A DNA stretch of 64,000 bases from an uncultured Planctomycetia bacterium. GTDB lineage: Bacteria > Omnitrophota > Gorgyraeia > 2-02-FULL-51-18 > JAGOUK01. Under the pieces are notes generated by a model that worked only from the letters and a program-made list of their open reading frames with translations, searched no databases and was not told the origin of the DNA. Positions 1-61,725 of this stretch are shown here, one piece after another. Location of the stretch: positions 94,027-158,026 of the forward strand of contig CAYSFB010000002.1 in the NCBI GenBank assembly GCA_964430735.1, in the 5' to 3' direction. The first letter of the stretch is position 1. Each line of letters opens with the position of its first letter. Both the position numbers and the translations under genes were made by a program.

Positions 1-3000
1 GGTCCAATCCGAACGGATTCAATACGCCCTCGGCCATATCCGTGAGCCGCATCGTCGCCATCAAATACTGGACATCCCTGAACCTCAGTACTTCCAGCGC
101 GACTGTCACCAGGTCTTGAAGATGTCCGTCTGTAATGCGGGGCACTTCCTCGAGTTTTCGGGCGGTCAAGACCACGGGATAATCTATGCCTTCGGAAGGT
201 CCGATGAAATACGGGTCGTTCAGCACGTTTTCCACAAATTGACGGGCCAATGCCTCATCCCGCAGATCGTGGCCGGCACGAACGATCTCAAGCGCCGCTT
301 TCTCGATCGGGCGCTTGGCTCCGGAGCCCTCCCACTGCGCATAGTATTCGCCGCTCAACGCTTCGTCGCTGCTCAAAGAACGCAGCAAGGACTGTGACAG
401 TGACATCAACTCGCTTTGAGCGTACGTCATGAGACTCGCACGATCCCGACGCAGGCTGGTGGGGTATTTTTCGCTCCAATAGAACATTCCGCCTTCGTTC
501 ATATCCGCCAACCCCAAAAGACCCAAAAAGTAGAGCTCGGAAGCGAGGCGGTGGATGAAATGGTGGGCTGCTCCCGCGTCTTGAGCCGCGCCCTTTAACC
601 TCAGGATCAGCCGATGCATCCGGTACACCCGATCGCTGTAATAGCGGCCGAGCGACGCTCCCAGGTAGGGGTGATCCTCGCTCAGATAAGCCCGTCGCAT
701 CTCCATCAGGTAGCCTTGAAGTTTTTCCAGCTCGGCCGCCAATTGGGGGTCCCGGACCTTTTTGAGCGCTTGCTCCGGAGAGAGGAAAACGATCTGCCGG
801 ATCCCGCGCTCAGGCAGGTCCTCCCCGGTGTCCGGCAGCAGATCGAGACCGATTATCTCCTCTTCGATCTGAGAGTGATAAACGACGCTCTGGATGTGCA
901 GAAGCGTCCATTGATTCGATCCGGGGGATTTGAATTTGTTGTGGTCCAAGATATCGACGATGATTCCGATCCGACCCTTGATCTGAGCGGTGGCTTCGCT
1001 GATCCGCAGCAGCTCAGCCGTGGAAAAGCCTTCGGCTTTTCCACGTTCGCCCAGCCGGATGACCTCATCAAGATCATCGATCAAATACCGGCGGAGCCAG
1101 CCGCTCCACTCGGCGTCACCGATCCGCGCCGGAGGCGTCTTCGGATCGAGTCCCGAAGACTTTAGAGCCGCCGCGAGCATGTCCACCCCTTCTCCGGAAA
1201 CGTGCTTTTTTTGAATACGCGACATGGTCTCCAAGACACAGCTCTGCGCCTCGTCTCTTGCCGGTCCGGGCTTCAGCATATCCCCCAATACCCAGCTCGT
1301 TTCGCGGATGAATTTGCCATTTTCGACGATAAAATCCGCCAACGCCGTCTCGGCGCGGCTCACATCCGGACGGTCTGATAACAAGACTTGGGGCGTGTCT
1401 TTGCCGTCCGCATCCTCGGCCGCTTCGAACACCAGTTTTGCCGGGTCGATCACGATCGCGGAATCTTCGCCGCGCATGGCGTCGGAGAGATAGTACAAAA
1501 ACTGCCCAGCGGCCTCCGCGTCCTTCAAAACGAGAACGCCCGGTTCCGACGGATGCTGTTGGAAGCCCGCGGCCTTTAGCCAGTTGACGATCATGAAGCG
1601 TTCCGGATGAAGCCGGAGCTTCACCGAAAAGCCGTCGTTTTGAGCGGCCATGATCTCGGACGCCAACTGCCTCAAATAGGCCGGCAACGCCACGGAATAA
1701 TCCCGATCCCCGATCTCCTTGACGCCGGCGGCCATCCTCGCGCCAAGCTCCTTCGACCCGTCCCTCTTTGCGGATCCGGAACCGGGTTCGGTTTCCACGA
1801 TCAGAGCCGGCTCTTGCCGCCGGTTCTCGGTTAGTCGGATTGTCTTGGGACTGCGGTCTCTTTGCGCCAGCCGCGCGGCTTTTGTTGGCGCAAAATAAGA
1901 TAACCCGGTAATTTCATCGACGGCTTCTTCGGCGCGAGGGCCCACAGCGGACACGGTAAGCATCGCTCCTTGACCGGCTGCCAACAAACCTATTTCGGAC
2001 ATTTCTTTTGCATTCACCGATTGCCTGCCGTCATGCAGGCGTATTTCGGTGCCTTGATAAGCTCGTGCAATCGACGCAATCTCCAGGGAGGGATGAAGGT
2101 GAATGCCGCCATCCCTGATCACAGTCACCATTCTTTGGAAAGATGCGTTTGGATTTTTTTCCGGCTGAACTTCCGCCAGCCGCGCGCCGCGGGGTGATGC
2201 AAAAACACGGTCGGACCGGGAAATCACCAGCAATGGACGCTCTCCCCATCTGGCGGGTCCGACGGGTCTCACAAAAAAGCCTTTTTCCTTGAATCTCCAT
2301 TCAGGCGCCGGACCACGGATAAAGGCCGCCCCGTTCTCGCCCACGAGCTCCCCGAGCCCTTCGATGGCCTGTGGCCAAGTCGCAAGCCTTCTCCCGCCCC
2401 GTCGGAATTCACCTTCCAAAAAGTCGTCATTGAAGACAAAATCGGAATAGACGAGGCTGTAGGTTCCGGTCAGATTCCGGTCGTCCCAAAAAGGCTTGTG
2501 ATGCAGCTTGGTCCTGGACCGGATGTCGTCGCTTACGGCCGGATCAGCCTCCAACCGGCGCTTGATCTCCACGAGGTTGGACGGACTCAAGTCGATCACG
2601 GCTTCGCGGCGCATTTGAGGAAATTCCTGATGAAGCATCATAATCTCCTGGGTGTTGCGCCCGGGACCGATGATCAGGTTGTTGCCGGCGGCCATCGCCG
2701 ACCGCGCTTCAGGAGTCAGAAGCTCCAGGCCTTTTTGGAATTGCGTTGTTTTTTCCGCTAGACGGTCGGGCGTCAGTTCGTCCCCGGTCTCGATCCCGAG
2801 ATCCAGATCAGACGAATCCGCCAAAGCCTCGCGCGAGACGCGGATCCAGTAGGGATTCAGTCCTCCGACGATTTCGACAGACCCCTGACCTAAAAACGGT
2901 TCGAGGTCCACGTCCAGCCGGATTGCGTCCAATTCGTCCGCGGTCTTGGCATTTTGGATCCGGTCATAAAGCTCGTTCACCCGCACGCTGGCCAACGTAA

Positions 3001-6000
3001 CTTTGGGGATGAGCGCCTTCAGCGCGATCTCAACCGCCTTGAATTCCTTCAGATAACCAGGATCGAACTCTCCGCGCTCAGCTGCGGCGGCGGCGGCCTT
3101 CCACACACGCGCTTCCAGATGGTAATACTGCCGCCGGGAAACACTCCGATGATCTTCAACGCCAAAGTCGTTCATTTTTGATCCCAGCATCCGCATCGTG
3201 GCGGCGACCCCATCGAATTGCTCTTCCAAATAAACCGGGTTTGAGGCGCAATTTTCACGGGTCAGCCATTGATTCGCCACTTCACGCCAGAATCCGTCTT
3301 TGCCGTGATTCGCGAAGCCTCGGATGGTTTGAACAATTTCCTGCGATTTGGGATGAAGATAATCCGCAAACGCTTCGTTGAGTTGCACTTTTTTATCCAG
3401 CCATTTACGCCGGAACTCCTCATCCATTGCCATCCGCGCGCCGTCGGCTGTTGCGGGTCTTAAGTCAGCGTCAGAAAGGTCAGGATCGCCTGTCGGCGGA
3501 TCATTCCCGTCCCAGTCCCATCCGCCTGAATTATCGCCATCGGAGTCTTCCTGATGAAAATGCAAAAGTCCGTCCCAGGCCTTCTGATAGGCGTCACCTT
3601 GTAGGATCGATCGAAAGGGGCCGATGACGGCGGACCGCTTCAAGTCGATTCCGAATTCAGGAAGCTCAAGCGCCTCGATAAGGTCATGACGATCTTTGTC
3701 AAAACCGTTGATTCCGGAATCGACACGGAGCGCTATCGTCCGATGTCTTCGTTCGGATGGAATGCTCTCGAATTCCAGAACCAGAGAGTCCGCTCTGGAG
3801 GATCGGTCCGTATCCGACCCGATGAGCGGGCCAAGAACGACCGTGGGCGGAAACTTGTGCTTCGCGAGCTGATCGTGCAGCTGACGCGCAGCCGCCTGCG
3901 TCCTGAGCTCCCCGCGCAAACGATGATCGTCGGGCGCATAAAAGATGAATTTAAAGCCCTGTTGCCGCAATTCTGACAATAGGCCGAGCGTCTCAGACTT
4001 GATCTCCTTCAAATCGCTCTTAGAGGGCCTCTCATCCGCATAATCAACGTTGACCCATGTGCTGGCATCACGCGATATCACAGAAAAATCCCCACCCTCC
4101 AGAATTTTGTCCAAATGCGGCAGGGCGCGCGGAGGCAGCGGAAGCGCGCAGTATTCCAGCAATCCTTTTCGCCGAAGCTCCTTCAATTGCTCGAGGACCT
4201 TTTCTGCCAAACCGGCGCCGAACCAATCCAGGTCCAGCATCAGCACCTCGCCCTCACGATTCAAAAGGGACTCCAGGTAATCCGCCGGTTTTTTTCCGAA
4301 TTTTTTCACATCGGCTCTCACGTTTATCCGAAAAGCGATCTGCTCCGGGTCCAAGGAACTTCGGTCTTTCCCGGATTCCGGATCGGGACGGCGGGAAGGC
4401 GTGGACAGCGCCAGGTCCGCCCGGCCTTGGTTGATTTTTTGATAAAGTTCCTGGGCGGCTGGAAAATTGGGGTTGTCTAAAAGATTCTTCCACCGCGTGT
4501 CAAAAGCCATGCTTCGTTGGATCGTGAAGGCTGCCTGATCAATCTTGTGGAGCCGGGCGGCAAGATCAAGCTGACGTTCGATTTCTTTTAGAAGTGCGGC
4601 CGGATTTCCTAAGGATGAGAGTGACTGCAGATCGTCCTCCCTCAGCGCGTCTTCCCTGCCTGCTGTCGCCACTCTTTGGATAAAATGAAGGTAAGACCTC
4701 ATTCCGTGCGTCGGCTTCCGCGCCTCGCGCATGGAATCCATAACCGCACCACCGACCAAATACAGGCCTTCCAGGACATTCTCGGACTGACGCAGGTCGA
4801 GCCAATCAAATCGCGCAGAGAACGTGTGTCGTATCAAGGCGAGCATGAACTGGTCGATGTCATCCCGCTCAATTCCGGCGGGGGCCGCACTCTCTTTTGC
4901 AATGATCCCAAAGACCCATTCGCGCACCGCGTCGATCTGATACCCGTATTCGACGAGCCATCGAAAGGCGGCTCTTTGGATGTCCGCATCGTCGGTCTGG
5001 TCATACACGGCCATGGTTCTGGTCAAAATATCCTCCGGAACGCTTTGGATCGGATCGGCAAGCTCGCGGATCGCAGCGATCGCGATTTGTTTCCGCTCAG
5101 AGTCCGTATCGGACGATTCCAAAATGCTCAGATGGTAACGGATCTGCTGCTCGACATTCGCCGCCAGCCGCGCACCGTCAGGTTCCGAATGCCGCGCCAG
5201 CTGGGAAGAAATTGTAGAATCGTACGCGTTTCGGATCGCGATCGCGTGGTCAAACGTGTCCTGCGAACCCTTGAGCAGCCCCAGAAACGCGTCGAAGCTC
5301 CAGTCCACGAATTTAAAACTGTCGCGGAGTTTTTTGGCGACCTTCTGATTGATGCCGAAGATCGTGTCCCGTCCGAGCGGAGCGAGATACGGATATTCCT
5401 GCGCGAAGTCGGCGGAACGGCCGTGGGTTACGAGAACATCCAGATCCGACTGCCACCAGCGCAGAAGGAAAAAAAGCTCCTGCAGGGATAGCGTGCGTTC
5501 GATCGAAAGGGGGCTGTACCAAAAATCGTCGGGATGCGCGGCGATCCACGGCCGGTAGACGTTCTGCCAGAGCGCGAGCTGGCTGCTCATAGACAGTCTC
5601 GGAAAGTTCCCGGGCTGGGCGTGATCGAACTTCAGCCATTCCCCGTCTTCGGTGAGTTTGCGCCGGATCAACCCCTCTTCCAGCCGCGCCTCGGCTACCT
5701 CCACGTGCGGCTGACTCTCCGGCGACAGCCACTCGTAGATGGAAAAGATCGCCGCGGCACGGGCGTGCGCGATGCGACCTTCCCGGTCATAGCCGGGGTT
5801 CTTTGCCTGGTGGGCCTTCAGGATCGTTTCGGTGTCATAGGGTGAAGGCAGGCGGAGCGTCGTAATAAAATCCAGCACTTGCCCCATCTCCACCGCGGTG
5901 TCTGAATCGGCTGTCCACTCGCGCGCCATCGACCGGCGAACAGCGGGATTTGTATCAAAGATCCCCTCATACACCTCTTTACGCGATCCGATGTCCGCCA

Positions 6001-9000: not shown

Positions 9001-12000
9001 AAAGCGTGTCCAATCCGGCATGCGGCGAGCCCTCTTGATCGATGTCCAGCATCTCGACCGCAGGGACTTGCGCTTCGCCGGCCGGCCGCACGGAGGCATC
9101 CAGCCGATCCAAAATTTTTTGAATCACGGCAGTCCGGTATTTCTTTTCGAAAAAATGCCCCATCCCTTTGACGATGGTGAGCGATGCAGGGGCATGCAGG
9201 TTGATAAAGCGTGCATACATCGCGTAAAAAATCGCGAGGATCGGCCCGCCCAAAAACATGAGATTGTCCATTTGGCCGACGACGTAATGATGGGGAATCT
9301 CCTGCATAAAGGAGATGTCGAACGGATCGTTCACCCATTCCCCGGTCTGTGCAAACCAGGGCTTAAAACCCTGCCACTTGCCGATCGGCGCACGAGCCGC
9401 GGTTCTCCATTCACGCCACTTTTGCTCAAGACGATAATCCGGAACCGCCGCAGCAATGGACCGCGCAAATGCGCCGTTACGGATAATCTGAAGAAGCGCT
9501 CGGGACGGATCAAGGGGTGAGGCCATGCCGAACACGGCCCCGATCTTCAATCCGGCGAATCTCGGATCGTTGCCGCCGGCTGCCAGCGAGGCGATGCGCT
9601 CTACCGTCCAGCCTCCGTAACTATGGCCGAACCAGAAGGTTCGCTCAAGATCCATTCGAGGATACATGCCGGGCTGTGCGGTTCGAAGCGATGATAGGAT
9701 TCGGTGCAGATCGTCGATCGAATCGCCCCACGTGAAAGTGGAGACATCTCCGCTGCTGGCGTTGCGGTTATCGGCGGAGGCGCGCGTGGTTTCGTCCCAA
9801 ACCCTGCCGCGATGTCCTCGAAGATCGGGCCGAACCACGGCAAAGCCGCGGCCGGCGACCGCCCGGGCAAGTTCGGCAATCAGGGGTTCGGAGGCGCTGC
9901 TTTGCCACCCATGGACGATAAAGGCCGTCGGAAACGGTCCCTCGCCGTCCGGGTAATCAACATAAAAAACGATTCTTTCGTCCGGTTTGCCGGTGAGCGG
10001 AAAAGACAGCTCATATGCCGCCTCCCACAGATCGCCGACACGCTGCGGCTCCCTGAGCCGGCGCAGACTCTGACGATTTCCCCGCGACTCACGATCCATC
10101 CCCAGACGCAGAGCCCCGACTTCCAACGGATCAACGTTGACGGCTCCGGATCCGGTCGGCTGGACAAAGTTCGATAAGTCGGGCCGCGCATCCAGGCCTC
10201 CCGCGAACCGGCGGTCGGCCAAACCTCCGGTCAATGCATCGATCTCATCCAGCAGGATCTCCGCACGTGACGCAAGCCCTATGGCTGCTCCGGCGCCGGA
10301 GGCGGACGATTGAATAAGCTGCTCATACAGGTCTTCGAGTGATTCTCCCTCCACATAGCGCATCCAAATCGCAGGCGCCGTTTCGCCGGCCCCGGTCCGG
10401 ACTTCAATCACCCCGAGCATTTCGACGACATCCAGCCCATGTCGTTTCAGGCCTCCATTGACCTCAACGACGCGGTCCAAAACCCGGGTCGTGACGCCCG
10501 GTATTTGGTCAAAAATCTTGATCGCCAGCCCTTTCGCGTGATTCACATACACGCTTCCCTGTGCGCCCGAGTCGTGATACGCATACGGTTCCCCTTCGAA
10601 ATACACCGTCGCCACACTCCCCCGCCCGCGATCCGATGCCGCCATCCGGGCGCCGTCCTGACCTTCCTCCGGCAGCAATTCACCGGGCTGCTTCTCGAGC
10701 GGCCAGTAGTCCGGCTGGCCGGAGAGTTTGATAAAGGTCCGGCTGTCCTTGGCGAGCTGCAGTTCCAGCATCGTGCCTTCGGGCCCTCTACGCAGCCAGA
10801 CATCCACGCCCGAAGCCGCGTCTCCCCTCAGAAGAAAATCTCCCAACTCGAGATCATTGATGCCGGGAGCCAGATAGATGCCGTTTATCTTGTAGACTTC
10901 GATCAAATGCCGGATATAGGCATAGAATTTTCTATCCGCTTCGTCGAGCCACGGCAACGAAAACCAGGACAGCGTGCTCATCGTAGGCCCCCCGTCTGGA
11001 AGCTTCTCCCGGCCTTCGGGTCCGTAGAACCGGCTGATCCCCATTTTTTCCAAGGCTCTGACCACCTTCGTCATCGGCTCCTTCCGCCGCTCCCAGGACC
11101 AGTCGCTGTTTTTGTCGTGGCTCCACGACCAGGCCATCCGCGCGCCTGATGCCGGCTTCGCATTCCTGCGGAATACGGCAGCAGCGGTCGGGGCTTGAAC
11201 ATTCACGCCCATGAAGTTGAATCTGCTGAACGTGCTGCCCGAGCCGGCCACGGCACGAAGCGACGATTCCAGCGCCTCCTTTTCCTCCCGCGAAAGCCAT
11301 TCGTCGTACAGCGTGTATTCCCCTCCCTCCGTCAGAACGCGCCGAGCGACATCGAGGTCGGCGGCATCCGAGACGATAATTTGGGCCGGACGCAGCAACC
11401 GGACGGCCTGTTTCAGGTAATTTCCCAAATCTGCGTCCGCTTTAGCCTGCTCCCTAAAACCAAAAACGTAGGACCTCAGCCCTTTAATGAGGAGAGTCAA
11501 GCTATCCGCGGAATTGACGTTCGCCAAACTCCTGGCTTTGGCATACATTCGGTCATCCAAAATATCGCCTTTGACATAACTCATGCGGACCCGGTCGTAC
11601 GGAAGGCCCAGCATGCCGGCGGCGGCTGCGCGCGAAGAGTGCTCGAGAAAATCGATCCGTTCGTCGCTTCGGGTGATCGCGACTGTCGGAGCGTATAAGC
11701 CGATATACCCGTCATATCCCGCTGCAGGATAAATGACCGTCTGCCCGTCCAGGAGGCCGCGTGAATCCAGGAGCCCGAAGTACGCCGCGGAATATCGGGC
11801 GACGGAACCGTCCTTCGAACCCGGCGCCTTCGGATCGCCCCCGCTGATCCCGCGCATGAGGACAGTCCAGGGGTCTTCGAGACCCGCCAGCCGCGCGCCA
11901 TATACCTTCCGGCCGTCCGGAAGATTGGCGAGGATATGAACCGGTCGGGGGTTGTCCCCGGCCTGTGTCCGACGGATCTCGACCTTGCCCCCGCCGAGAT

Positions 12001-15000
12001 CGTCGATCTCGATCTTTCCGAAATAAACGTTGGAATGGACCTGGGACATCACCCGGCCGTTGATCCGAATTAACGGCTCCGTCCCCCCGTCCATTTGAAC
12101 GACGATCCTGGGCGGCTGGCCAGCCTCGATCGTGACCGGATAAATGTTATCCAGCTCCCGCATTTGGACGTAAGGCCTACCGGTGTAAGAAGTCTTGTCG
12201 GCGGGCCCGTCGTCCAAAGCAAGGACAAAAGACTGGGAACCGCTGATGATGCGCGTCGAATGACCGGGCAGAAGATCCAAAACAACCGGCTGCCAGGGGA
12301 CCAGCTGGGCCAATCGGCTCCCCTCGATCAACCCCTCGGCCTCCAGTTCTTTTAAAAACCGCCGGACCTGTTCGTAGTGCTCCCAATACTCGGGAGAAGG
12401 CGCCCATCCTGAATCGGCGTCCTGAGGGTAGATATCCAACAGGTTGTACAGATACTCTTCGGCCCTGTCGCCCGGACGCAGCGGACGGACGCTGCCGGTG
12501 TCCAGCAGGATATAGCGGTCCGGATTCTGCAGTCGGTAACCGAGCTGCTTCAGGGAAAAAATATCAGCAAAGATATATCCTTTACGAAGCAATTCTTTGA
12601 ACAGCCGGAAATATGCCGGATAATCCATGCGACGCACCAGTCGGTGCCGCTTCTGCAGGATCACGTACGGAAATTCATCCGAGATCATTTCCCGCATACC
12701 GTCGGACAACGACGCGATGTCCTCCGCGCTCAAAGGAATCAAAATGGGCTCCGTCGTGCTTCCCCGCAGCTCGGGGTTCTGCGCGGTCAACGCCCCTTCG
12801 AGCACGTCGCGGATGATGTCCTGGTGGGTCTGTTTGATTCTGACCCAGCCCTGATAGAGGGGGTGAGTACGCTTGGGTACGATTTTGAGGACCAGATCGG
12901 GATAAGTCATGCTTTTCAGAACGAACACCTGCGTGCCGACATTCGCGGATTCAAAAATCTTCCAGTCCGCGGACAGGATTTTTTTCAAAATGGCTGTCCG
13001 CTCGTGCGGCCAATCCGCCATCAGCAGCTGCCCGTCCAAATATCGCTCGAGATACAGAACCGCGTCATCCAGCGCCGCGTGTCGCATTCGTTCGTCTTCC
13101 GACAATCCCGAGAGTGCCGTGCGGATGTTCTCCAACGTCTGAACGTCCGTCAGTTCCAGATGCCCGGCTTTGATCCGGATCTTTTCCAGTCCGTCCAAAA
13201 TCCGGAATCGGGCCGCTTCTCCGTAGCGTGCGGCCAATGAATCGACCTGCTGGGCGACAACTGCGTCCTCCGCCAGCCGCGCGCCCTGCCCCGCGCGGAG
13301 ACGCTGCTTCAGCCGCTCATATCCGTCCAAGGCCGGCTGGCGCGACGGGCGTTCCAGAAGTCTAAAATAATCGGCTGCGATCGGTCCGCCGATGACCAGG
13401 TCGTTCAAATCCGCCGCCGTCGAGGTTGCGGCCTCGGTCCGGTGCATCAGGTACAGGATCGACTCAGAAACAGACCACTCCACGGCCCACCGATAGGGTT
13501 CCGGCAACGCTGAAGGCGATAACGATTCGACGACCGCGACCGCTTCACCCAAATACGCGCGCGCCGGGATCCCCGCTTGCTCGGCTCCCGACAGGAGCGG
13601 CTCCCATGCGTCAACACCGGCGAGCGGGTGGATCAGCATCTGCGCGCGCTGCGAAACGTCCCGTCGTTTCGCCCACTGCGGCCAGTGCGCAAGCAGCCGT
13701 TTATAAAACAATCCGACACCCCAGGCCTCGGCTTCGCCATCCCGCGGCGACTTGCCGCGAAGCGCCATTCCCGAAAGTGCGGTCCGAAGCAGGAGGGTGT
13801 CGTCGTCTGCGATCTCGTTCAAGGCCGCAAAACGCTTCTTGAGCATCTCCGCCGGCATGGGATAGGTCGTGTGGAACAGCCACCACCGCGCGGCGCTCGG
13901 AAGTGATTCGTACGCGGCGCCTTCGGGACGTAATTTTTGAATGACGTCATCGACGAGCTTCATCCGTACGCGGACGAACTCGATCCGCTCCGGGTCCGTC
14001 ACGTTGTAACCGGCCGGATCCGAACCGTCGAGCCGGATCGCGCTCGAGGCGATATTGAGGAGGATTTCCGTCAGGTCAAAAAGCTTTTTGCCTCCGGCTC
14101 CGCGGCTCGAAAACACCGCATCCCACTCGACCACCGTGTCGATCTTGCCGAAGGGCAGGTCGTCGAAGTGCGCCGAGCCGAGGGTGAGTTTTTTCCTGGC
14201 CCAGGACCATTTCTGGGCTGTCGTTTCGCCGGCAAGTACCTTGGTTCCGGAAAGCTCGAGCGTGCGGCGCAGAATATCGTCCAGCACCGGGTCGGCTTCC
14301 TGCTCGAGTTTTTCCAGCCGCGTCTGACCGACGCCCGGGTGCCGCGGAGCGCCGGTAAACTCCAATGCGATCTGGTCCAGCAGCCCGTAAATGCGCTGCT
14401 CGACCAGGGTCAGGATCTCGTAATCGTCCCTTTCCGAGTCGCCGGCGTCTCCGGTATCGCTGTCCTGCGTTCGCAGAACCTCGAGCTGGCGCCGGATCGT
14501 AAACCCGATCCATTGATGAAAGGCGTCTCCGGCCAGGTCAGCAAAGATCTTTTTTTCCTCCCGGACAGAGATCTTTTCGTTCGTATGGGAAACGACCCAG
14601 CCTCGGGCGTCCAACGTCGGGATTTGAACCTTCATATAGCCGTTTTTCATCGCCGTCAGGATGTCCAGGAACGCTTCGTACCGGCCGGTTCTCAGAAGGT
14701 TCTTTAAAAAGCGCAGGAACCGCTCCGGGATCAGAAGCCCCGTGTCCACCACCGGAAGCAGGGACAAAAACTGTCCGCTCCAGCCGTTGATCCGGTACAC
14801 CAGATCGAATTCGCCCAACGCCATCGCCCGGTGCGTCAGCCGCAGCAGTCCCGTCTGATATTCGATGATGCGTTCCCGAAGCTTGCGGAAGAGCATCCTC
14901 CGTCTTTCGAATGCGGGATCTTTTTTCGAAGCAGACGCGTACTGCTCTTCATGCTGGATGCGGTCGATCATTCCGTCCGGCGTCCGGGGGGCGTGACGGG

Positions 15001-17617
15001 CGATCTGCGTTACCTCCAGAGCCAGCGGCTTGGCCTCGAGCATCAGCTGCTCGAACTCGTCCCGGATCTTCCGGGCCTGCAGGCGTGTTTGAACCCAATC
15101 GATCAGGTACTGGAACCAGGCGCGTATGCGGAGCCGGGACGAGACGTATTCTTTTTCCTTGAGACTCCACTCGCGGTCGAACTGCCTCATCGACCACGCC
15201 ATCGTGCCGGCGGTCACGCGCGCTTGGCGCAACTTTTGGATCTGCTGATACCATTCCCATCCGTACAGAATGTCGAAGGCCATCCGAATCACTTCCGGCG
15301 ACCGCTCCCGTCCGTCCAGCCCCGAGGAGCTGCTCAGACGCGCCAACTCCTCCATCGAACAGTACATCATCGGCCGGTTCCGGCTGATCCGCCATCTTCC
15401 CCAACGATACCGGAACGACGGAGTCGGCACGAGGAGCCGCGTCTGCGGGATCACCGCCGCGATCATCATGTTCCTGCGTACTTGACCGGCTGAAGGGAAC
15501 TGGTCCCGGGGAAAGATCCTCTCGTCTTCCAGCGCGGCGAACACCGCCCGCAAATTGATCTCCGCACGCGGAAACAGCCGCGTGTAGCGCTCGAGCTTCT
15601 CACGGGCTTCGGCGAGTTCGCGGGCGAGCCGCTCGGAGCGGACCTCGCGCAGATCTGAGACAGGTTCGCGGCCGGTCCGCTCCAACTCCTCCTCCAGCAG
15701 CTTGATGTCGGTTCTCAGCTTGGACGGATTGATCGGATCGGATTCGTCGGGACGCTTCGAGTAATGCCCATCGCCCTGATGCATCAGCTTCCACGGAAGT
15801 GAACGGATCTTGCTGTCTGCGATCAGCATCAGCTTCATCGGCCCGCGCAAGTGGAGACGTCCCGATTTTTTCAGAGTCTCGTCCTCCTGTCCCGACGCCA
15901 GCCGCGCGCCGGAATCTTCACGAAGATCTCTTTGGCGTAAATGGCTCAGCGCCGAGCGGATCTGAGATTCGGTCCCTTCCGCGCCGGCAAGCCGGGCAGC
16001 AGCCATAGAGTCGAAGACGCCGGTGTCGGCCAGCGCCAGTTTGGGGATGTGGCGAAAAACACCGGGCGAAGCAGAAGTGTTGATACCGCGCTTCAAAGGC
16101 ATGAGCAGGATTTTTTCGTATTGGACGCGGTCGGTTTGTGTCCGGACTTGAGGGGTCAGGATCGCCCAGCCGTACCCCTCCTGCGCCAGAAGCTCTTTGA
16201 GGTGGTCGGTGTGATAACCGCCGGCGATGAGAACCGCGGCCTTTTGCCCCGAGGCATCCAGCGTCCGGCCGGCGCGGGCGACGAGCGAATGATCGCGGAG
16301 ATTCACGAGCGTGTAAAAAGCACGGATCAGACTCCAGGAGCGGTCCAAAACGGCTGTTTCCGGAATCCGGACATCCAAAAGTCCGAGCTGATCCGATTTT
16401 TTATGTAAAAAGCTTTTCCACTCCCCTGATTCAAAATACTTACGGTTCTGCCGGAGCTGCCGGAACTCACGGGAGGTGAGCTTGAGGTCGAAGGCCTTTT
16501 GGATCAGGTCAAAATAAATGCCGAGCAGCGCGATCTTGCGCGCGTCCTCGTCCGGAAGCAGTTGACGGTAGGAGCGGGCTTCGAGCTCCTCGGATTCACG
16601 GGCGAGAGCGTCCCAATCCATCCCGCGAAAAGTCCCCAGATATTCCGCGTAGCGGCGCAGATGCGGATATTCCCCTTCCGCGAGGTCCAGGAGCGACCGG
16701 ACGAGACGCTCGCGCTCGGCGGGAAGCGCGGCGCGGCCCAATCCATCCGCCAACGCCTGTGCGGCCTGCGACCGGGGACCGGACTCCAGCCGCCGCAGCA
16801 GGGCGTCCTGCTCCAGCGACAATGCCTCGTAGTTCATCGACGCATCCGTCCATTTGAGAACCTTGAGCTTCAAAAAAGACGGGTACGCATTGAGACTCAC
16901 GCGCGCCGCGTCCGCCAGCTTGAGCAAACCATCGATCGCCCGGATCGAGCCATCCGCTCCCGCTTCACGTTTCGCCCGCTCATAGTCCAGAAGCGTATCC
17001 GGATACAGCCGGTCTTTGAATGCCTGAAGCGCGTTCCGAACCTCCTGCCATTCGCGCGATGCGGCTCCCCTCACCGACGCGACGCGCGCATACGCCAACA
17101 ACGCCGCGCCGTAATGCCGGGTGTTTTCCACGCCGTGTAATTCCACGTCGGCTCCGCCGGTCAAACTCAGGTGCTCAGGTCCGCTCAAAATTCCTTCGCG
17201 AAGCAACTGCTCGGCGCCGAGCTTCAATTCACGCGGGCCGACCACCGCGCGCAACGAACCCAGGTCCGCGCGGCGGCTGCCGCCTTCGAGCAGGACGGTG
17301 CGGATGCCGTAGGTTGAAGACAGGGCGCGGATCGCAGCGGCGATGTTTTTTTGGCCTTCGTAATTGCCGTGGGGATCTTCGATGAGGACGAGAAGGCGGC
17401 CGTTCGATCCGGCATGCGCTTCTTTGAGCTGAACCGTTCCGGCGGGAAGGTCGATGCGCAGCGGGTTGGCGACCAAACCGGCCAGACCGGAGCCTTTGGC
17501 TTCCGGCCGCACCGGCACACGCTCTCCCAGCGACGCCGCCGCCCAGGAAATATCCTGAGCGATCAAAGCGATCGCCAAAGTCATAGCCGTTGTTTTTAAA
17601 AAGCGCTTAAAGCCCAT
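1..17617 (-). CDS. Giant multidomain protein (giant A), partial: the start codon and more than 5,870 N-terminal codons are in the window, the C-terminus lies beyond window position 1. It has a signal peptide, an N-terminal Tiki/TraB/ChaN/erythromycin-esterase-like domain (paralogous to the N-terminus of the 4429-aa protein at 48158..61447) and an internal alpha/beta-hydrolase domain (~9100..9990)
   Basis: Not listed in the ORF track because there is no in-window stop. Every minus-strand ORF the track lists between 1 and 17600 has its start coordinate = 0 or 2 mod 3, and none is in the frame = 1 mod 3, so that frame must be open all the way to the window edge. Hand translation from ATG 17617..17615 (RBS-like AAGAAGGG 5 nt upstream, in-frame TAA further upstream) gives MGFKRFLKTTAMTLAIALIAQDISWAAAS..., a signal peptide. 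It then reads ...NGRLLVLIEDPHGNYEGQKNIAAAIRALSSTYGIRTVLLEGGSR... and ...AAVLIAGGYHTDHL... The frame stays open and protein-like for ~1,350 codons (17617 to ~13550) and at every other point sampled (10018..9540, 9060..9000, 5100..5040, 240..180). Translating 10018..9540 gives ...FIVHGWQSSASEPLIAELARAVAGRGFAVVRPDLRGHRGRV...ERTFWFGHSYGGWTVERIASL..., a textbook alpha/beta-hydrolase nucleophile elbow (G-H-S-Y-G) preceded by an HG oxyanion motif. Confidence 0.65.
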   Translation of the reverse strand, partial: MGFKRFLKTTAMTLAIALIAQDISWAAASLGERVPVRPEAKGSGLAGLVANPLRIDLPAGTVQLKEAHAGSNGRLLVLIEDPHGNYEGQKNIAAAIRALSSTYGIRTVLLEGGSRRADLGSLRAVVGPRELKLGAEQLLREGILSGPEHLSLTGGADVELHGVENTRHYGAALLAYARVASVRGAASREWQEVRNALQAFKDRLYPDTLLDYERAKREAGADGSIRAIDGLLKLADAARVSLNAYPSFLKLKVLKWTDASMNYEALSLEQDALLRRLESGPRSQAAQALADGLGRAALPAERERLVRSLLDLAEGEYPHLRRYAEYLGTFRGMDWDALARESEELEARSYRQLLPDEDARKIALLGIYFDLIQKAFDLKLTSREFRQLRQNRKYFESGEWKSFLHKKSDQLGLLDVRIPETAVLDRSWSLIRAFYTLVNLRDHSLVARAGRTLDASGQKAAVLIAGGYHTDHLKELLAQEGYGWAILTPQVRTQTDRVQYEKILLMPLKRGINTSASPGVFRHIPKLALADTGVFDSMAAARLAGAEGTESQIRSALSHLRQRDLREDSGARLASGQEDETLKKSGRLHLRGPMKLMLIADSKIRSLPWKLMHQGDGHYSKRPDESDPINPSKLRTDIKLLEEELERTGREPVSDLREVRSERLARELAEAREKLERYTRLFPRAEINLRAVFAALEDERIFPRDQFPSAGQVRRNMMIAAVIPQTRLLVPTPSFRYRWGRWRISRNRPMMYCSMEELARLSSSSGLDGRERSPEVIRMAFDILYGWEWYQQIQKLRQARVTAGTMAWSMRQFDREWSLKEKEYVSSRLRIRAWFQYLIDWVQTRLQARKIRDEFEQLMLEAKPLALEVTQIARHAPRTPDGMIDRIQHEEQYASASKKDPAFERRRMLFRKLRERIIEYQTGLLRLTHRAMALGEFDLVYRINGWSGQFLSLLPVVDTGLLIPERFLRFLKNLLRTGRYEAFLDILTAMKNGYMKVQIPTLDARGWVVSHTNEKISVREEKKIFADLAGDAFHQWIGFTIRRQLEVLRTQDSDTGDAGDSERDDYEILTLVEQRIYGLLDQIALEFTGAPRHPGVGQTRLEKLEQEADPVLDDILRRTLELSGTKVLAGETTAQKWSWARKKLTLGSAHFDDLPFGKIDTVVEWDAVFSSRGAGGKKLFDLTEILLNIASSAIRLDGSDPAGYNVTDPERIEFVRVRMKLVDDVIQKLRPEGAAYESLPSAARWWLFHTTYPMPAEMLKKRFAALNEIADDDTLLLRTALSGMALRGKSPRDGEAEAWGVGLFYKRLLAHWPQWAKRRDVSQRAQMLIHPLAGVDAWEPLLSGAEQAGIPARAYLGEAVAVVESLSPSALPEPYRWAVEWSVSESILYLMHRTEAATSTAADLNDLVIGGPIAADYFRLLERPSRQPALDGYERLKQRLRAGQGARLAEDAVVAQQVDSLAARYGEAARFRILDGLEKIRIKAGHLELTDVQTLENIRTALSGLSEDERMRHAALDDAVLYLERYLDGQLLMADWPHERTAILKKILSADWKIFESANVGTQVFVLKSMTYPDLVLKIVPKRTHPLYQGWVRIKQTHQDIIRDVLEGALTAQNPELRGSTTEPILIPLSAEDIASLSDGMREMISDEFPYVILQKRHRLVRRMDYPAYFRLFKELLRKGYIFADIFSLKQLGYRLQNPDRYILLDTGSVRPLRPGDRAEEYLYNLLDIYPQDADSGWAPSPEYWEHYEQVRRFLKELEAEGLIEGSRLAQLVPWQPVVLDLLPGHSTRIISGSQSFVLALDDGPADKTSYTGRPYVQMRELDNIYPVTIEAGQPPRIVVQMDGGTEPLIRINGRVMSQVHSNVYFGKIEIDDLGGGKVEIRRTQAGDNPRPVHILANLPDGRKVYGARLAGLEDPWTVLMRGISGGDPKAPGSKDGSVARYSAAYFGLLDSRGLLDGQTVIYPAAGYDGYIGLYAPTVAITRSDERIDFLEHSSRAAAAGMLGLPYDRVRMSYVKGDILDDRMYAKARSLANVNSADSLTLLIKGLRSYVFGFREQAKADADLGNYLKQAVRLLRPAQIIVSDAADLDVARRVLTEGGEYTLYDEWLSREEKEALESSLRAVAGSGSTFSRFNFMGVNVQAPTAAAVFRRNAKPASGARMAWSWSHDKNSDWSWERRKEPMTKVVRALEKMGISRFYGPEGREKLPDGGPTMSTLSWFSLPWLDEADRKFYAYIRHLIEVYKINGIYLAPGINDLELGDFLLRGDAASGVDVWLRRGPEGTMLELQLAKDSRTFIKLSGQPDYWPLEKQPGELLPEEGQDGARMAASDRGRGSVATVYFEGEPYAYHDSGAQGSVYVNHAKGLAIKIFDQIPGVTTRVLDRVVEVNGGLKRHGLDVVEMLGVIEVRTGAGETAPAIWMRYVEGESLEDLYEQLIQSSASGAGAAIGLASRAEILLDEIDALTGGLADRRFAGGLDARPDLSNFVQPTGSGAVNVDPLEVGALRLGMDRESRGNRQSLRRLREPQRVGDLWEAAYELSFPLTGKPDERIVFYVDYPDGEGPFPTAFIVHGWQSSASEPLIAELARAVAGRGFAVVRPDLRGHRGRVWDETTRASADNRNASSGDVSTFTWGDSIDDLHRILSSLRTAQPGMYPRMDLERTFWFGHSYGGWTVERIASLAAGGNDPRFAGLKIGAVFGMASPLDPSRALLQIIRNGAFARSIAAAVPDYRLEQKWREWRTAARAPIGKWQGFKPWFAQTGEWVNDPFDISFMQEIPHHYVVGQMDNLMFLGGPILAIFYAMYARFINLHAPASLTIVKGMGHFFEKKYRTAVIQKILDRLDASVRPAGEAQVPAVEMLDIDQEGSPHAGLDTLFPIQTNHDRAGALAIASVAQFFDDHPRFIPTHPGSRSQETASRTRLLVTDDGSVQVRGGEGVRKIGYLELLAGPERTARIRLEPGESDRPAVWGVAYPLLRLALALEGWNLEEPDAFHQALDRPDLYFVTRFAPEGTPEVICLKYTANGVPYMIRLQTDEGGHGSERAVDRYYRIEVIRDPSGPRDGGDYAGGLSVTTVPDGTLQNYDIDISRKRTRRFPWLEGFLSDWLQPQRNRSFDWFNPDLTSSSSPVGARMSHQKSVRHFLNEALKLTGWVGIAYMSVVALSSLSPQVYWEYAWGWSNGIPTMLKGWSLLALIIFASQYPNKWKQVAIVGAPIGLMFAFGLDHMNLQNLGRALARVCTVFVTIFVAKTMREEGSIADRVSSAWGWALSSGLIGSFHQYTVWLPFVLKAIPDAAHRSAFDIGIAANLVHTPLSLTMAFVFGEKINLWRELRQQGLTGFVRNPQVRMVLEMLPYNFCYWYPVTRLAYGSDNPWNFFAVTSVASAVWVWFVSSKITRIATEAAKTKPAPGPKSSHGDGADDSGARMAAWVFLSPLYLAVAGLRHLAVWIMERFNDPLVVRVDLKDAEALRKAIPRLAAYCETIHFLSYPDEDGVFRHIDLTGTRARFGAGLLSIIDNDIPTRLLQSASYPMRVDVRRLPDDKNHMAIFDSGHLKSPFPRISAARLSVAKDRTAEGASDRSAYMTHQLKQAPAEKSYLLLNPSERELFFQAESILDSGDADRIAAWMLRVDAQVIPDLRSTGSPWARQLGTADRWLAFHTMYHIDGQQLYEQRLRTLAAVASDETLAWRAAFFGPHLRNNRTGFDDEDLIGIKLFLSRSLPALARLQNKMRTASEEVSYRRRQRWLLNALVFPESAGADARPRKPELRDLLDELTESSGTDVRSLVRSAWRALPEEDRGFLIERPFMFTEQYLVAVLRDVQSPDLTLDAVAAGEAASRRFYQQHRETLSGVTAAARQEEALQSLLIESGLPALSASGARLADIGSRKEVYEGIFDTNPAVRRSMAREWTADSDTAVEMGQVLDFITTLRLPSPYDTETILKAHQAKNPGYDREGRIAHARAAAIFSIYEWLSPESQPHVEVAEARLEEGLIRRKLTEDGEWLKFDHAQPGNFPRLSMSSQLALWQNVYRPWIAAHPDDFWYSPLSIERTLSLQELFFLLRWWQSDLDVLVTHGRSADFAQEYPYLAPLGRDTIFGINQKVAKKLRDSFKFVDWSFDAFLGLLKGSQDTFDHAIAIRNAYDSTISSQLARHSEPDGARLAANVEQQIRYHLSILESSDTDSERKQIAIAAIRELADPIQSVPEDILTRTMAVYDQTDDADIQRAAFRWLVEYGYQIDAVREWVFGIIAKESAAPAGIERDDIDQFMLALIRHTFSARFDWLDLRQSENVLEGLYLVGGAVMDSMREARKPTHGMRSYLHFIQRVATAGREDALREDDLQSLSSLGNPAALLKEIERQLDLAARLHKIDQAAFTIQRSMAFDTRWKNLLDNPNFPAAQELYQKINQGRADLALSTPSRRPDPESGKDRSSLDPEQIAFRINVRADVKKFGKKPADYLESLLNREGEVLMLDLDWFGAGLAEKVLEQLKELRRKGLLEYCALPLPPRALPHLDKILEGGDFSVISRDASTWVNVDYADERPSKSDLKEIKSETLGLLSELRQQGFKFIFYAPDDHRLRGELRTQAAARQLHDQLAKHKFPPTVVLGPLIGSDTDRSSRADSLVLEFESIPSERRHRTIALRVDSGINGFDKDRHDLIEALELPEFGIDLKRSAVIGPFRSILQGDAYQKAWDGLLHFHQEDSDGDNSGGWDWDGNDPPTGDPDLSDADLRPATADGARMAMDEEFRRKWLDKKVQLNEAFADYLHPKSQEIVQTIRGFANHGKDGFWREVANQWLTRENCASNPVYLEEQFDGVAATMRMLGSKMNDFGVEDHRSVSRRQYYHLEARVWKAAAAAAERGEFDPGYLKEFKAVEIALKALIPKVTLASVRVNELYDRIQNAKTADELDAIRLDVDLEPFLGQGSVEIVGGLNPYWIRVSREALADSSDLDLGIETGDELTPDRLAEKTTQFQKGLELLTPEARSAMAAGNNLIIGPGRNTQEIMMLHQEFPQMRREAVIDLSPSNLVEIKRRLEADPAVSDDIRSRTKLHHKPFWDDRNLTGTYSLVYSDFVFNDDFLEGEFRRGGRRLATWPQAIEGLGELVGENGAAFIRGPAPEWRFKEKGFFVRPVGPARWGERPLLVISRSDRVFASPRGARLAEVQPEKNPNASFQRMVTVIRDGGIHLHPSLEIASIARAYQGTEIRLHDGRQSVNAKEMSEIGLLAAGQGAMLTVSAVGPRAEEAVDEITGLSYFAPTKAARLAQRDRSPKTIRLTENRRQEPALIVETEPGSGSAKRDGSKELGARMAAGVKEIGDRDYSVALPAYLRQLASEIMAAQNDGFSVKLRLHPERFMIVNWLKAAGFQQHPSEPGVLVLKDAEAAGQFLYYLSDAMRGEDSAIVIDPAKLVFEAAEDADGKDTPQVLLSDRPDVSRAETALADFIVENGKFIRETSWVLGDMLKPGPARDEAQSCVLETMSRIQKKHVSGEGVDMLAAALKSSGLDPKTPPARIGDAEWSGWLRRYLIDDLDEVIRLGERGKAEGFSTAELLRISEATAQIKGRIGIIVDILDHNKFKSPGSNQWTLLHIQSVVYHSQIEEEIIGLDLLPDTGEDLPERGIRQIVFLSPEQALKKVRDPQLAAELEKLQGYLMEMRRAYLSEDHPYLGASLGRYYSDRVYRMHRLILRLKGAAQDAGAAHHFIHRLASELYFLGLLGLADMNEGGMFYWSEKYPTSLRRDRASLMTYAQSELMSLSQSLLRSLSSDEALSGEYYAQWEGSGAKRPIEKAALEIVRAGHDLRDEALARQFVENVLNDPYFIGPSEGIDYPVVLTARKLEEVPRITDGHLQDLVTVALEVLRFRDVQYLMATMRLTDMAEGVLNPFGLD

Positions 17618-17682
17618 CCAACCCTTCTTTTATTTGCCGCTTATTTATATAGAGGGGAAAAAGAATATTACCCGCAAGTATA

Positions 17683-17719
17683 AGGAAAAAAACACCCGCT
17701 TCAATGATGAAGCGGGTGT
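17683..17719 (-). terminator. Rho-independent terminator of tkt
   Basis: Perfect 12-bp inverted repeat ACACCCGCTTCA / TGAAGCGGGTGT (17692..17703 and 17708..17719) with a 4-nt loop. On the minus-strand transcript it is followed by a 7-8 U tract (the complement of the A-run at 17683..17691). It sits 27 nt after the tkt stop codon (17748..17746). Confidence 0.75.
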
Positions 17720-17745
17720 ATATAACTGACTGGAGCTGACTAAGT

Positions 17746-26320: not shown

Positions 26321-26332
26321 ACGCCGCCGGAA

Positions 26333-29300: not shown

Positions 29301-29812
29301 CGCCCGAAGACCGATTTGGGCACCGCTTTTTTATCATCCGGGATCGGGAGGCCCCCTTCGGTGACGTGGAACACTCCCTGCGTCGTCCGGCGATCGTTGC
29401 GCGGGTTGTGGAGAACTCCCTGCCAGATGCGGTACGAATCGATGATCGCCGAATGAAATTCGTCGCTCGCGCTCGGCAGCGACATCAGACGCGCCATTCC
29501 GGGACGATCGAGGATGAAGGGATTGAGCGGCAGACGGGTGGAGGCACGGGGCAGCCCTTCGACGCCGGACAAAACGTCGTCCAGATAATCCTGAATGCGC
29601 TGGTCCGCGGGACTCAGCGCGTGATCGGCGAAGCGGCTCCGTTCGCGATGGCTGCGGAACAGCGGGTCAGCGAGCTTAAGAAGCTCAGACTCATCCGAAA
29701 CCTGCTCGATGTCAAAGCCCATGTAATTGAGCTTCAGGCGAATGTAGTCAGCCAACTGCTGGGCATGGGGATCCGCTAGGCTGGAACGCATGGAACACCT
29801 CTTATGGGTCAA
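26333..29812 (-). CDS. Large (1159 aa) conserved cytoplasmic protein. The size and composition are compatible with PPi-type phosphoenolpyruvate carboxykinase (PPi-PEPCK family); the assignment is tentative.
   Basis: The amino-acid composition is diverse and non-repetitive, and there is no signal peptide or TM segment. The length matches the ~1150-aa PPi-PEPCK family. The overlapping + strand ORF 26927..29779 (950 aa) is Arg/Val/Gly-rich antisense. A -10 TATAAT (minus strand, plus coordinates 29853..29858) and a GAGGTG RBS lie upstream. Confidence 0.75.
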   Translation of the reverse strand: MTHKRCSMRSSLADPHAQQLADYIRLKLNYMGFDIEQVSDESELLKLADPLFRSHRERSRFADHALSPADQRIQDYLDDVLSGVEGLPRASTRLPLNPFILDRPGMARLMSLPSASDEFHSAIIDSYRIWQGVLHNPRNDRRTTQGVFHVTEGGLPIPDDKKAVPKSVFGRLLIEAFRPPKELLQLPFTSAEAKPAELFVSLLLRPVICPDVPGFISEKSMEIRFFVPGNLVSNLDFVETIFGNAGDPYIPDHDAGRDVEHWSGHTGCVILAPHLTTFRKKDLGLPHYDQANERQRRDGMCWKDASELYNDGGAFKITCRDARGVIVTIIADNYFGYCKKEVKTQISYAANLYGLCEEEHSGGALAYATYDLGEEFVLEPHMSRSRNTMADALKIYGKNVDVMPEGHAVDRTHRDVILVPEDARFNLQDQAISWNRGGKACRIKLLADHTYLLPSGYKVRIKRQTGGYAWHLIGTVPEGVLCHKPCTVSGGGKSEISKSIVDAMIQGPVFVADFNKDMDAVEELLKRDYSGRFRPGSAPPPGRPSRPVLSNERSLGSVIKLFTVSEEHTDEYNAWLQSIPDYIKEILFCVKRFYRADWGGDWRSRFSVDLVNGHPGHELKFKNRKLVANYLRVGREKDGSWRIFRVRTDYSAANKIQAADDITASVTVPRAAMQHLNPDFSNPSLKMIRNCENYLFQRPDDAVYRGFDKQAETDLATPGTFISNFEPLGLEPVRDIVQDVVKFDQFTDPMKKLLRDFAANAGPDQFVVSSAHSRIVDGKPTKNPRYLQKRPDHVNPRSVYIAELAARLRRLVPVDKPVHQPVNAVLPGRRNNPPDRKAGVPALAVYNPVHFQELPELFMDFISSLTGKSPSTTGFGSEGALTKGPFNALPPIVDLNNAFLSFVLTGYDGFSSAASYIGPNYRVDHDISLLVPEIWCRMRAEEQEAVYLIRNGFLERVEDFDHKGKRVQASILGYRITQRFVNAFLGRVFNNPNIVFTREMLKPELQDADAFVEGIENILVTYRRVAEHYFNDGSIEAACPPLKALLHIMAHGHYESKPVMHPDIRRMFERDEVVRSAWYRERLDMKQRNDLLLYQSHVDYLTELSGPTARVSEGEKEAVRQKLADAQKKLAHAKTAAYRESLVGTIGTDPFLFRAGQTR

Positions 29813-30519: not shown

Positions 30520-30536
30520 AGTTTTTCTAAGTCGCA

Positions 30537-30567: not shown

Positions 30568-30582
30568 ATTAAGGTTTTCGAC

Positions 30583-61447: not shown

Positions 61448-61478
61448 GGGGTGTGTCCTTCAAATCCGTTTTTCTTCC

Positions 61479-61719: not shown

Positions 61720-61725
61720 GACCCG

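Follow-up and report, generated by a model that had tools for sequence, protein, structure and literature searches.

A giant gene of the Omnitrophota kind with a TIKI-like head domain and a recurrent junction motif between exchangeable modules

The window analysed here is a 64,000-nucleotide stretch of DNA from an uncultured Planctomycetia bacterium (assembly GCA_964430735.1, contig CAYSFB010000002.1, forward-strand positions 94,027 to 158,026). Positions 1-17617 cover three-quarters, counted from the 5′ end, of a single genuine chromosomal gene on the minus strand that has a start and upstream signals of its own. The gene product, referred to below as the giant protein, begins with a head domain of the TIKI/TraB/erythromycin-esterase/ChaN fold, behind which ~20 heterogeneous modules are strung together and separated by a short junction peptide with the consensus [S/A]-G-A-R-[L/M]-[A/S/T]. 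These modules are cassettes that are present or absent and re-ordered between relatives, with the breakpoints of homology lying on the junctions. The junctions are probably endoproteolytic sites, and an even chance is given here to the reading that an exported or membrane-inserted polyprotein is cut at them into ~20 proteins, with the TIKI-like head as the likeliest protease. The original prediction for this region, made from the sequence alone, had proposed the giant gene itself; the junction motif, the TIKI-like head and the paralogy of a second giant gene in the window (giant B) are internal anatomy that it missed.

Extent of the giant gene

In a six-frame translation that keeps edge-truncated frames, one minus-strand frame is free of stops from 17629 to 2 (5,876 codons). 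Its first start codon is ATG 17617, from which 5,872 stop-free codons run to the window edge (2-17617, minus strand). Stops per 400-codon window number 0 in this frame and 1-22 in each of the other five, and the GC content by codon position (~0.64/0.44/0.69) is coding-like and even along the whole frame. A chance open frame is excluded, because a random frame at 60% GC would have roughly 200 stops. When 1.84 billion cluster representatives were searched with a profile, they yielded a database protein of 7,894 aa (P0007), from an NCBI record with a 293-kb contig, in which aa 1-5872 match the 5,872 residues of the window protein with 100% identity. The gene is therefore 23,685 nt long (7,894 codons) and continues for ~6.07 kb past the left window edge, with its stop codon outside the window. 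At 17,616 nt without a stop in the window and 23.7 kb in full, it is uninterrupted and exceeds the 20 kb that marks the giant open reading frames (ORFs) of Omnitrophota. The single ORF running without a stop to the window edge, as originally proposed, is thus borne out, and the in-frame minus-strand stop that would have spoken against it was sought between 1 and 17614 and not found. A genome-contig search with the last in-window module gave no match that would extend the contig leftwards, and a Logan contig from the same organism ends within the S8-peptidase gene described below.

The gene lies downstream of a transketolase gene (Pfam E 3e-150), which ends at 17746. Between the two, consensus matches on the minus strand indicate a putative transketolase terminator (12-bp stem and T-run; 17719-17692) and a promoter-like TTGAAG-16-TATACT (17704-17677), and a Shine-Dalgarno-like stretch, GAAGGG-N6-ATG, precedes the start codon. 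The first 27 residues, MGFKRFLKTTAMTLAIALIAQDISWAA (17537-17617, minus strand), form a basic and hydrophobic segment that is a putative signal peptide or signal anchor. Both structure models place a hydrophobic helix at aa 2-26, and homologs keep the "QDxSWAAP" end of the segment (...S-W-A-A-P). The earlier description of a signal peptide followed by continuous protein-like sequence agrees with this helix and with the uniform coding signature.

No Rfam families or RNA genes and no long DNA repeats were found in 1-17900. Internal duplication was considered as the source of the gene's length and rejected, as only a single weak self-match was found, between aa 570-1444 and aa 3417-3869 (34% over 87 aa). 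Because there is almost no internal duplication and there are no long DNA repeats, the gene is not a repeat array.

The junction motif

The in-window part of the giant gene encodes 12 copies of the peptide GAR[LM][AST], where 0.11 would be expected, and full-length P0007 has 19. Elsewhere in the window it is found only in giant B, in 2 copies. The corresponding DNA form, GGCGCGCGG[C/A]TGGC, has 13 copies, all on the minus strand, in frame and confined to the giant gene, and a repeat finder recovers it de novo as the gene's sole repeat family. On the minus strand, the junction reads GARLA at aa 570 (junction 1; 15896-15910), aa 1445 (13271-13285), aa 1907 (11885-11899), aa 3870 (5996-6010), aa 4148 (5162-5176) and aa 5144 (2174-2188). 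It reads GARMA at aa 2158 (11132-11146), aa 2322 (10640-10654), aa 3417 (7355-7369), aa 4726 (3428-3442) and aa 5292 (1730-1744), and GARMS at aa 3125 (8231-8245). Variants are the weaker AARLA at aa 540 (15986-16000), AARLS at aa 3556 (6938-6952) and AARLA at aa 5247 (1865-1879). The last in-window module begins at aa 5292 and is cut by the window edge at aa 5872; in P0007 it extends as far as the next junction, at aa 6091.

The motif is a property of the whole family of proteins that carry the head domain. Across 132 long representatives with mutual identities of <50%, GAR[LM][AST] was found 527 times against 4.4 expected (120-fold). One-position changes are enriched 7-15-fold, the exchange of R for K and a non-small fifth residue each reduce the enrichment to 2.4-fold, and the reversed motif, used as a control, stands at 0.9-fold. 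An unbiased 4-mer scan of the family tails returned GARM, ARMA, GARL and ARLA as its top four. The flanks are unconserved save for Pro/Ser/Ala at -2/-1, the first copy lies just past the head domain, and the median spacing is 318 aa. Homologs of 40-50% GC retain the junction peptide with different codons. At junction 1 the AlphaFold2 (AF2) model has a per-residue confidence (pLDDT) of 23-33, which makes it a low-confidence and presumably flexible linker; the AF2 alignments were shallow, at 6 sequences. A short conserved inter-module motif, an accessible linker and protein-sized spacing, as in processed polyproteins, are therefore all found here.

The motif is also closely tied to the head. Head-domain ORFs hold 1.31 copies per thousand amino acids (kaa); in 314 further ORFs from their loci the density is about 0.014 per kaa. 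Among 318 long ORFs without a head in these loci, 34 copies were found, 32 of them in four ORFs: two are family genes interrupted by masked N runs, one is a tandem-gene tail, and one is an adjacent head-less gene. The masked runs lie at ~12100-12250 in locus L040 and ~6730-6840 in locus L066, where they mimic splits; the apparent division into head-only and tail genes was rejected, each pair being one ORF broken by masked N. The adjacent head-less gene (L002, 8233-14122, at least 1,963 aa) contains four GARL[AST] and lies 65 nt downstream of a head-domain gene (P0003), in another frame. It is the only clear motif-bearing protein without a head of its own, and suggests that the motif can be read in trans.

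The head domain

The head domain occupies aa ~44-512 (16082-17488, minus strand) and has the TIKI/TraB/erythromycin-esterase (Ere)/ChaN fold: an alpha/beta core with a parallel beta-sheet flanked by helices, like the solved members of the TIKI superfamily, split by a ~300-aa helical insertion. Residues D81, H83, E111 and H469 do not vary in any of the 152 representatives, and neither do N85, E164, R441-D442 and G466-G467. In the model, D81-x-H83, E111 (28 residues after the His) and H469 each lie at the C-terminal end of a core strand. Active TIKI members carry a set of two His and two Glu, namely E3900, H3902, E3930 and H4030 in RRSP and, in part, H85/E113 in Bcr135 (PMC6254334). Judged by sequence, D81-x-H83...E111...H469 appears to match the spacing of this set in RRSP and Bcr135, with Asp replacing the first Glu. 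The invariance of these catalytic-type residues argues for an active enzyme and not for a decayed scaffold like that of PMT.

The window head itself has no match to PF04187, PF01963 or PF05139 in Pfam and none in NCBIfam. Among 50 family members, nine match PF04187 ("Haem-binding uptake, Tiki superfamily, ChaN"; best E 4.5e-5), which is the most recurrent family. The head also differs from the described TIKI superfamily (Tiki1/2, RRSP, TraB/PrgY, erythromycin esterases, ChaN, HopBA1 and PMT-C1) in several respects: it has no significant sequence similarity to the solved members, its core is split by the long helical insertion, Asp stands in place of the first Glu, its invariant N85, E164, R441-D442, T470 and T495 are without a described counterpart, and no known member heads a multi-module protein.

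Modules and their exchange

Pfam scans over 7,866 residues found only the Abhydrolase, HPr and GNAT families, and most modules have no Pfam or NCBIfam match. The recognisable modules are an alpha/beta-hydrolase, HPr, GNAT, an HExxH module, multi-transmembrane modules and a C-terminal transmembrane module. The alpha/beta-hydrolase (aa 2567-2823; 9149-9919, minus strand) has a GHSYGG nucleophile elbow and matches Abhydrolase_6 (E 5e-14) and Hydrolase_4 (E 4e-6), in keeping with the hydrolase that had been recognised by eye; it sits within the module of aa 2322-3124. In the same module, a kinase-like region seen by eye (aa ~2340-2520; GAQGSVYV...AIKIF...YVEG) was set aside for want of Pfam support. 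A hydropathy scan shows at least six hydrophobic segments in the next module, an integral-membrane module (aa 3125-3416; 7370-8245, minus strand), which has a 29% identical counterpart in the family protein P0071 that is also bounded by the motif. The HPr domain, the phosphocarrier of the phosphotransferase system (PTS), spans aa 5161-5238 (1904-2137, minus strand; Pfam PTS-HPr E 3.2e-12, 46.8 bits against a cut-off of 23). It lies in a 103-aa module (aa 5144-5246, window 1880-2188) that is exactly bracketed by the junctions at aa 5144, directly ahead of it, and aa 5247. By eye, its "GIHLHPS" retains the equivalent of His15 and has His for Arg17 and Glu for the regulatory Ser46, and these two replacements make a canonical PTS carrier function doubtful.

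Beyond the window, P0007 continues with the GNAT module, a further membrane module, the HExxH module (an HELMH motif in a transmembrane-containing module, aa 6640-6894) and the C-terminal transmembrane module. The last of these, ~220 aa long with two hydrophobic segments, recurs at P0007 aa 7676-7894, P0009 aa 6986-7206 and P0058 aa 3586-3794 with 33-61% identity, so that some members are conserved at both ends with variable cassettes in between. Domains never straddle junctions: HPr is bracketed by them, and the HTH_3 domain of locus L038 lies between junctions 3597 and 3851.

Exchange of the modules is best seen by comparing P0007 with its nearest relative, P0009 (7,206 aa). Their heads are 64% identical and their C-terminal modules ~60% identical. 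The internal blocks that they have in common are few, with identities of 82% (1,108 aa), 90% (263 aa), 64% and 52%. The ends of these blocks lie 0-8 aa from junctions in both proteins, and the junctions at aa 2322 and aa 3417 form the left and right borders of the 82% cassette. The blocks are re-ordered, and two neighbouring blocks of P0009 are separated by >3,000 aa in P0007. Family-wide, 20% of the ends of high-scoring segment pairs are no more than 10 aa away from a junction, compared with 5% of random positions.

The DNA under the junctions is also unusual. In the giant gene, the synonymous codons under the motif are GGC in 11/12, GCG in 12/13, CGG in 11/13 and CTG in 7/7 cases, each a skew of p~1e-3 to 1e-4 relative to the gene's own codon usage. 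The same codons, GGC-GCG-CGG-CTG-GCG, are over-used in 38 low-GC family loci, with CGG at 63% against 15% expected (p 9e-44); 12 high-GC family loci show no such skew. As the junction DNA is more uniform than the peptide requires, selection on the peptide alone is insufficient to explain it. Recombination or gene conversion from junction to junction would be the simplest idea that covers both the codon uniformity and the movement of cassettes, and an RNA-level signal or a codon-specific pause may be an alternative basis of the skew.

The composition of the modules bears on their destination. Cysteine makes up 0.14% of the giant protein (8 in 5,872 aa) and a median of 0.02% in the family tails, against 1.0-1.45% in the cytoplasmic enzymes of the window. 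RTX toxins, autotransporters, type III secretion effectors and other proteins that undergo export or translocation in an unfolded state typically avoid cysteine in this way. The recognisable modules, in turn, are of cytoplasmic type (HPr and GNAT, with helix-turn-helix (HTH), receiver and methyltransferase domains in relatives). Speculatively, delivery into another cell would reconcile the depletion of cysteine with cytoplasm-type modules.

Size and distribution of the family

A profile of the head region (first ~520 aa) retrieves 9,033 representatives of 50%-identity clusters, 4,800 of them at E<=1e-30. The head domain is always N-terminal, total protein lengths range from ~450 to 7,894 aa, and relatives carry domains that include HTH, receiver and methyltransferase types. 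Among GTDB species representatives, 288 stretches encode the head domain. Labels were counted on the best 79 of these, of which 42 are Omnitrophota/Omnitrophica, 32 "uncultured Planctomycetia" from third-party (TPA) records, four Eisenbacteria from one metagenome-assembled genome (MAG), and one a proteobacterium. The guess that the density of giant genes recalls Planctomycetota or Omnitrophota fits these labels, since the named relatives of the N-terminal domain are Omnitrophota/Omnitrophica or TPA "uncultured Planctomycetia", which also point tentatively to the lineage of the contig itself. Single MAGs hold up to nine family loci. No family member was found on viral contigs, and an origin from a phage or mobile element was rejected on this ground and on that of the housekeeping genes around the locus.

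The second giant gene of the window, giant B (48161-61459, minus strand; an open frame of 4,433 codons), belongs to the same family. Its head domain lies at aa 53-535 (hmmsearch E 3.7e-82, 24% identity), so that the window holds two deeply divergent paralogs. Junction-like sites in giant B are GSRFT at aa 552, AARMA at aa 763, GARMA at aa 2702 and GARLA at aa 3961, and it also contains HEAT repeats. The two paralogs have no cassettes in common.

Processing at the junctions and its alternatives

Cleavage of some kind at the junctions is judged probable, and the proposal that the TIKI-like head is the processing protease is put at rather less than an even chance. The giant product would be exported or inserted into the membrane through its N-terminal segment, and the chain would be cut at the G-A-R-[L/M]-A junctions into ~20 separate proteins. 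The head would cut in cis or in trans, and recombination or gene conversion between junctions would keep their DNA uniform and move the cassettes. The head is the most economical candidate for the protease because it is the sole domain present in every member, and the active members of the TIKI superfamily include the site-specific endopeptidases Tiki and RRSP.

Several points weigh against this processing by the head. That the chain is cut at the junctions is what we infer, and the grouping of D81, H83, E111 and H469 into one spatial cluster is putative. The first acidic residue of the head is Asp and not Glu. Foldseek ranks agree on the top structures, albeit weakly (best E 0.019), and profile searches against PDB sequences with the whole head and with the core segment gave only noise. 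The head could be an esterase or a binding domain, like the superfamily members Ere and ChaN. AF2 left the first junction undocked from the head and predicted it to be disordered. A canonical motif is absent from 34 of the 132 long members, 14 of which have close variants. The codon skew shows a constraint on the same 15 nt that does not come from the peptide. An HExxH module in the same protein and an S8-peptidase gene 2.3 kb upstream provide alternative proteases. Finally, Omnitrophota "multi-enzyme" giants have been described as single polypeptides anchored in the inner membrane (Nielsen & Lui 2026, bioRxiv 10.64898/2026.06.07.730766).

This last description leads to an alternative in which the product is an uncleaved, membrane-anchored multi-enzyme scaffold and the motif a hinge or a docking site for a chaperone, a translocon or a modifying enzyme. 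Besides the inner-membrane-anchored picture, multi-transmembrane modules interspersed with soluble ones, the AF2 model of the junction as a mere flexible linker and the inferred status of cleavage all speak for such a scaffold. It is nevertheless held to be rather unlikely: hinges seldom need five strict residues of which one is an essential Arg (R to K cuts the 120-fold enrichment to 2.4-fold) and the fifth is small, the motif goes together with an invariant hydrolase-like head, and the anatomy is that of known polyprotein sites, with a short motif, unconserved flanks and protein-sized spacing.

A polyprotein could also be cut by some other protease, with the head serving another purpose, for instance as an esterase, in anchoring or in export. 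The HExxH module (P0007 aa 6640-6894), the product of the S8 subtilase gene (19888-24444) and a housekeeping Arg- or Leu-specific protease are candidates. The HELMH motif lies in a transmembrane-containing module that is 90% conserved in P0009, a Peptidase_S8 domain is encoded by the second gene upstream, on the far side of the transketolase gene, and a role in processing Omnitrophota giants has been proposed for S8 and C39 domains (West-Roberts et al. 2023, bioRxiv 10.1101/2023.11.21.568195); the L002 gene, moreover, bears the motif without a head. However, in Blast searches of the family the HExxH module was found only in P0009, the family loci show no conserved neighbour, S8 included, and the head is the motif's only universal partner. 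Cleavage by an enzyme other than the head is thus regarded as unlikely.

A further explanation places the signal in the DNA, such that the 15-nt GGCGCGCGG[C/A]TGGC would primarily be a recombination site (site-specific, Chi-like or based on microhomology) and the peptide its harmless in-frame translation. It would account for synonymous positions that are far more uniform than codon usage predicts, both in the giant gene and in the 38 low-GC loci, for cassettes that are swapped and re-ordered exactly at junctions, and for the recovery of the motif de novo as the gene's only repeat family. Yet the peptide is kept in many copies despite 5-8 nucleotide changes (for example GGAGCCAGACTTTCT, GGTGCGAGACTAGCA and CACGCAAGATTAGCC), the skew is absent from the 12 high-GC loci, all copies share one frame and orientation with none out of frame or on the opposite strand, and no recombinase is associated. 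As a replacement for a function of the peptide, a DNA signal is therefore improbable; it may well form a second layer over that function.

Division of the region into several genes, through an assembly chimera or through internal starts at the ATG or CTG of the motif (6 of the 13 junctions in the giant gene contain ATG and the others CTG), is effectively refuted, given the complete lack of stops in the 5,876 codons, the absence of a Shine-Dalgarno-like sequence ahead of the motif, the 28% of family Leu codons at the motif position that are CTT, CTC, CTA or TTA and unable to initiate, the same architecture in 88 ORFs from dozens of independent MAGs, the lack of long repeats able to mislead an assembler, and the independent assembly of the neighbouring region in Logan SRR14271366.

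Relation to known systems

Giant ORFs >20 kb are common in Omnitrophota, and their roles are "poorly understood" (Seymour et al. 2023, PMC10066038); the cleavage points of Omnitrophota giants have been stated to be unknown (West-Roberts et al. 2023). The gene in the window resembles the giants described by Seymour et al., West-Roberts et al. and Nielsen & Lui in having an ORF >20 kb with few annotatable domains, in the presence of several giant genes per genome and in lineage labels. It also has, like them, an N-terminal signal or transmembrane segment, scattered transmembrane helices and domains of the GNAT, receiver, methyltransferase and HTH type that tile one polypeptide. At 7.9 kaa, it is unlike the catalogued giants in falling under the published 10-kaa cut-off. 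In a limited literature search, these three papers (2023, 2023 and 2026) were found to make no mention of a TIKI-like head, a junction motif or the exchange of cassettes at junctions. The giant ORF itself is thus of a known Omnitrophota kind, and the head, the junction and the cassette exchange are features for which no description was found in those papers.

MARTX and clostridial glucosylating toxins are, like the giant protein, large, with conserved ends and a central array of unrelated modules, and they are exported, as the giant protein probably is. MARTX modules include an alpha/beta-hydrolase and the TIKI-fold RRSP, and the giant protein likewise has an alpha/beta-hydrolase and a TIKI-like domain. 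MARTX effector modules are exchanged by recombination (PMC5555677), and MARTX and clostridial toxins are cut between modules within ...G-[AS]-L-[SG]..., after the Leu, which is at P1, with a small residue at P1′ (PMC2900308). A central array of exchangeable modules with short sites, as in MARTX, is found in the giant protein at the level of architecture only. No RTX repeats and no C80 cysteine protease domain were detected by Pfam in the 7,866 residues examined, nor did Pfam reveal a type I secretion context. Further differences from MARTX are a candidate protease that is an N-terminal TIKI fold and not an InsP6-activated cysteine protease domain, an essential Arg in the junction, ~20 modules instead of 3-5, and a host from an uncultured environmental lineage. 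MARTX may accordingly be called an architectural analogue of the giant protein, and not a fellow member. Viral polyproteins (with picornavirus 3C and flavivirus NS3 sites) and gingipain-type proteins would share with the proposed polyprotein the yield of many proteins per product, a short strict site and a protease in the same chain. Unlike viral polyproteins, the giant gene is cellular and chromosomal, stands among housekeeping genes and belongs to a family in which cassettes are shuffled between paralogs. As for the substrates of the TIKI superfamily, what is documented for Tiki on Wnt3a is the removal of "eight amino-terminal residues".

Omnitrophota are characterised by giant genes, and what these genes do is a recognised problem of the field. 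A junction enriched ~120-fold and an invariant head in thousands of genes yield a concrete and testable cleavage map, which indicates where the proteins should be divided in silico, which semi-specific peptides to look for and which pair of enzyme and substrate to assay. There is a realistic chance that the junction exposes a general processing code for Omnitrophota giant proteins, in which case the motif would supply a cleavage map for the larger giants of 10-150 kaa. If cleavage takes place as proposed, the family would be the first among large cellular polyproteins, toxins and viruses aside, to have a processing signal of its own, and the TIKI superfamily would gain a new class of substrate. 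That cassette breakpoints and DNA skew coincide at the same 15 nt suggests a mechanism for the evolution of modular proteins.

A wider and more doubtful, yet possible, extension is a phylum-wide system of polyprotein cassettes in Omnitrophota and their allies that serves as an alternative to operons, with thousands of genes each encoding a TIKI-like protease and a string of unrelated proteins. The string would be exported or translocated unfolded, which would explain the near absence of cysteine, and would be cut between [L/M] and A of G-A-R-[L/M]-A into enzymes, regulators and membrane proteins. The products might be effectors delivered to host or prey cells, and the 15-nt junction DNA would double as a recombination site that shuffles cassettes between paralogs.

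Neighbouring genes in the window

The four large ORFs of the window sum to ~46.5 kb, close to the earlier estimate that four genes fill ~46 of the 64 kb. Ordinary genes stand among them (17746-19767, 24665-32802, 44861-47931 and 61699-63486) and encode a transketolase, an Asp-Al_Ex permease, a pyrophosphate-type PEPCK-like protein and a DsbH-like thioredoxin, as well as a Na+/H+ exchanger, a glutamyl-tRNA reductase and ResB. These housekeeping neighbours indicate that the locus is not a mobile element. The same neighbourhood is present in the Logan assembly of run SRR14271366. The S8-peptidase gene, 2.3 kb upstream of the giant gene with the transketolase gene in between (19888-24444, minus strand), is an ORF of 1,518 aa with a C-terminal Peptidase_S8 domain (E 9e-15) and a cysteine content of 0.26%. 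A further ORF of 3,685 aa (32841-43898, minus strand) had tentatively been labelled "TpsA-like" and has no Pfam hit at E<=1e-5. It carries neither the head domain nor the junction motif, and its cysteine content of 0.14% is as low as that of the two family genes.

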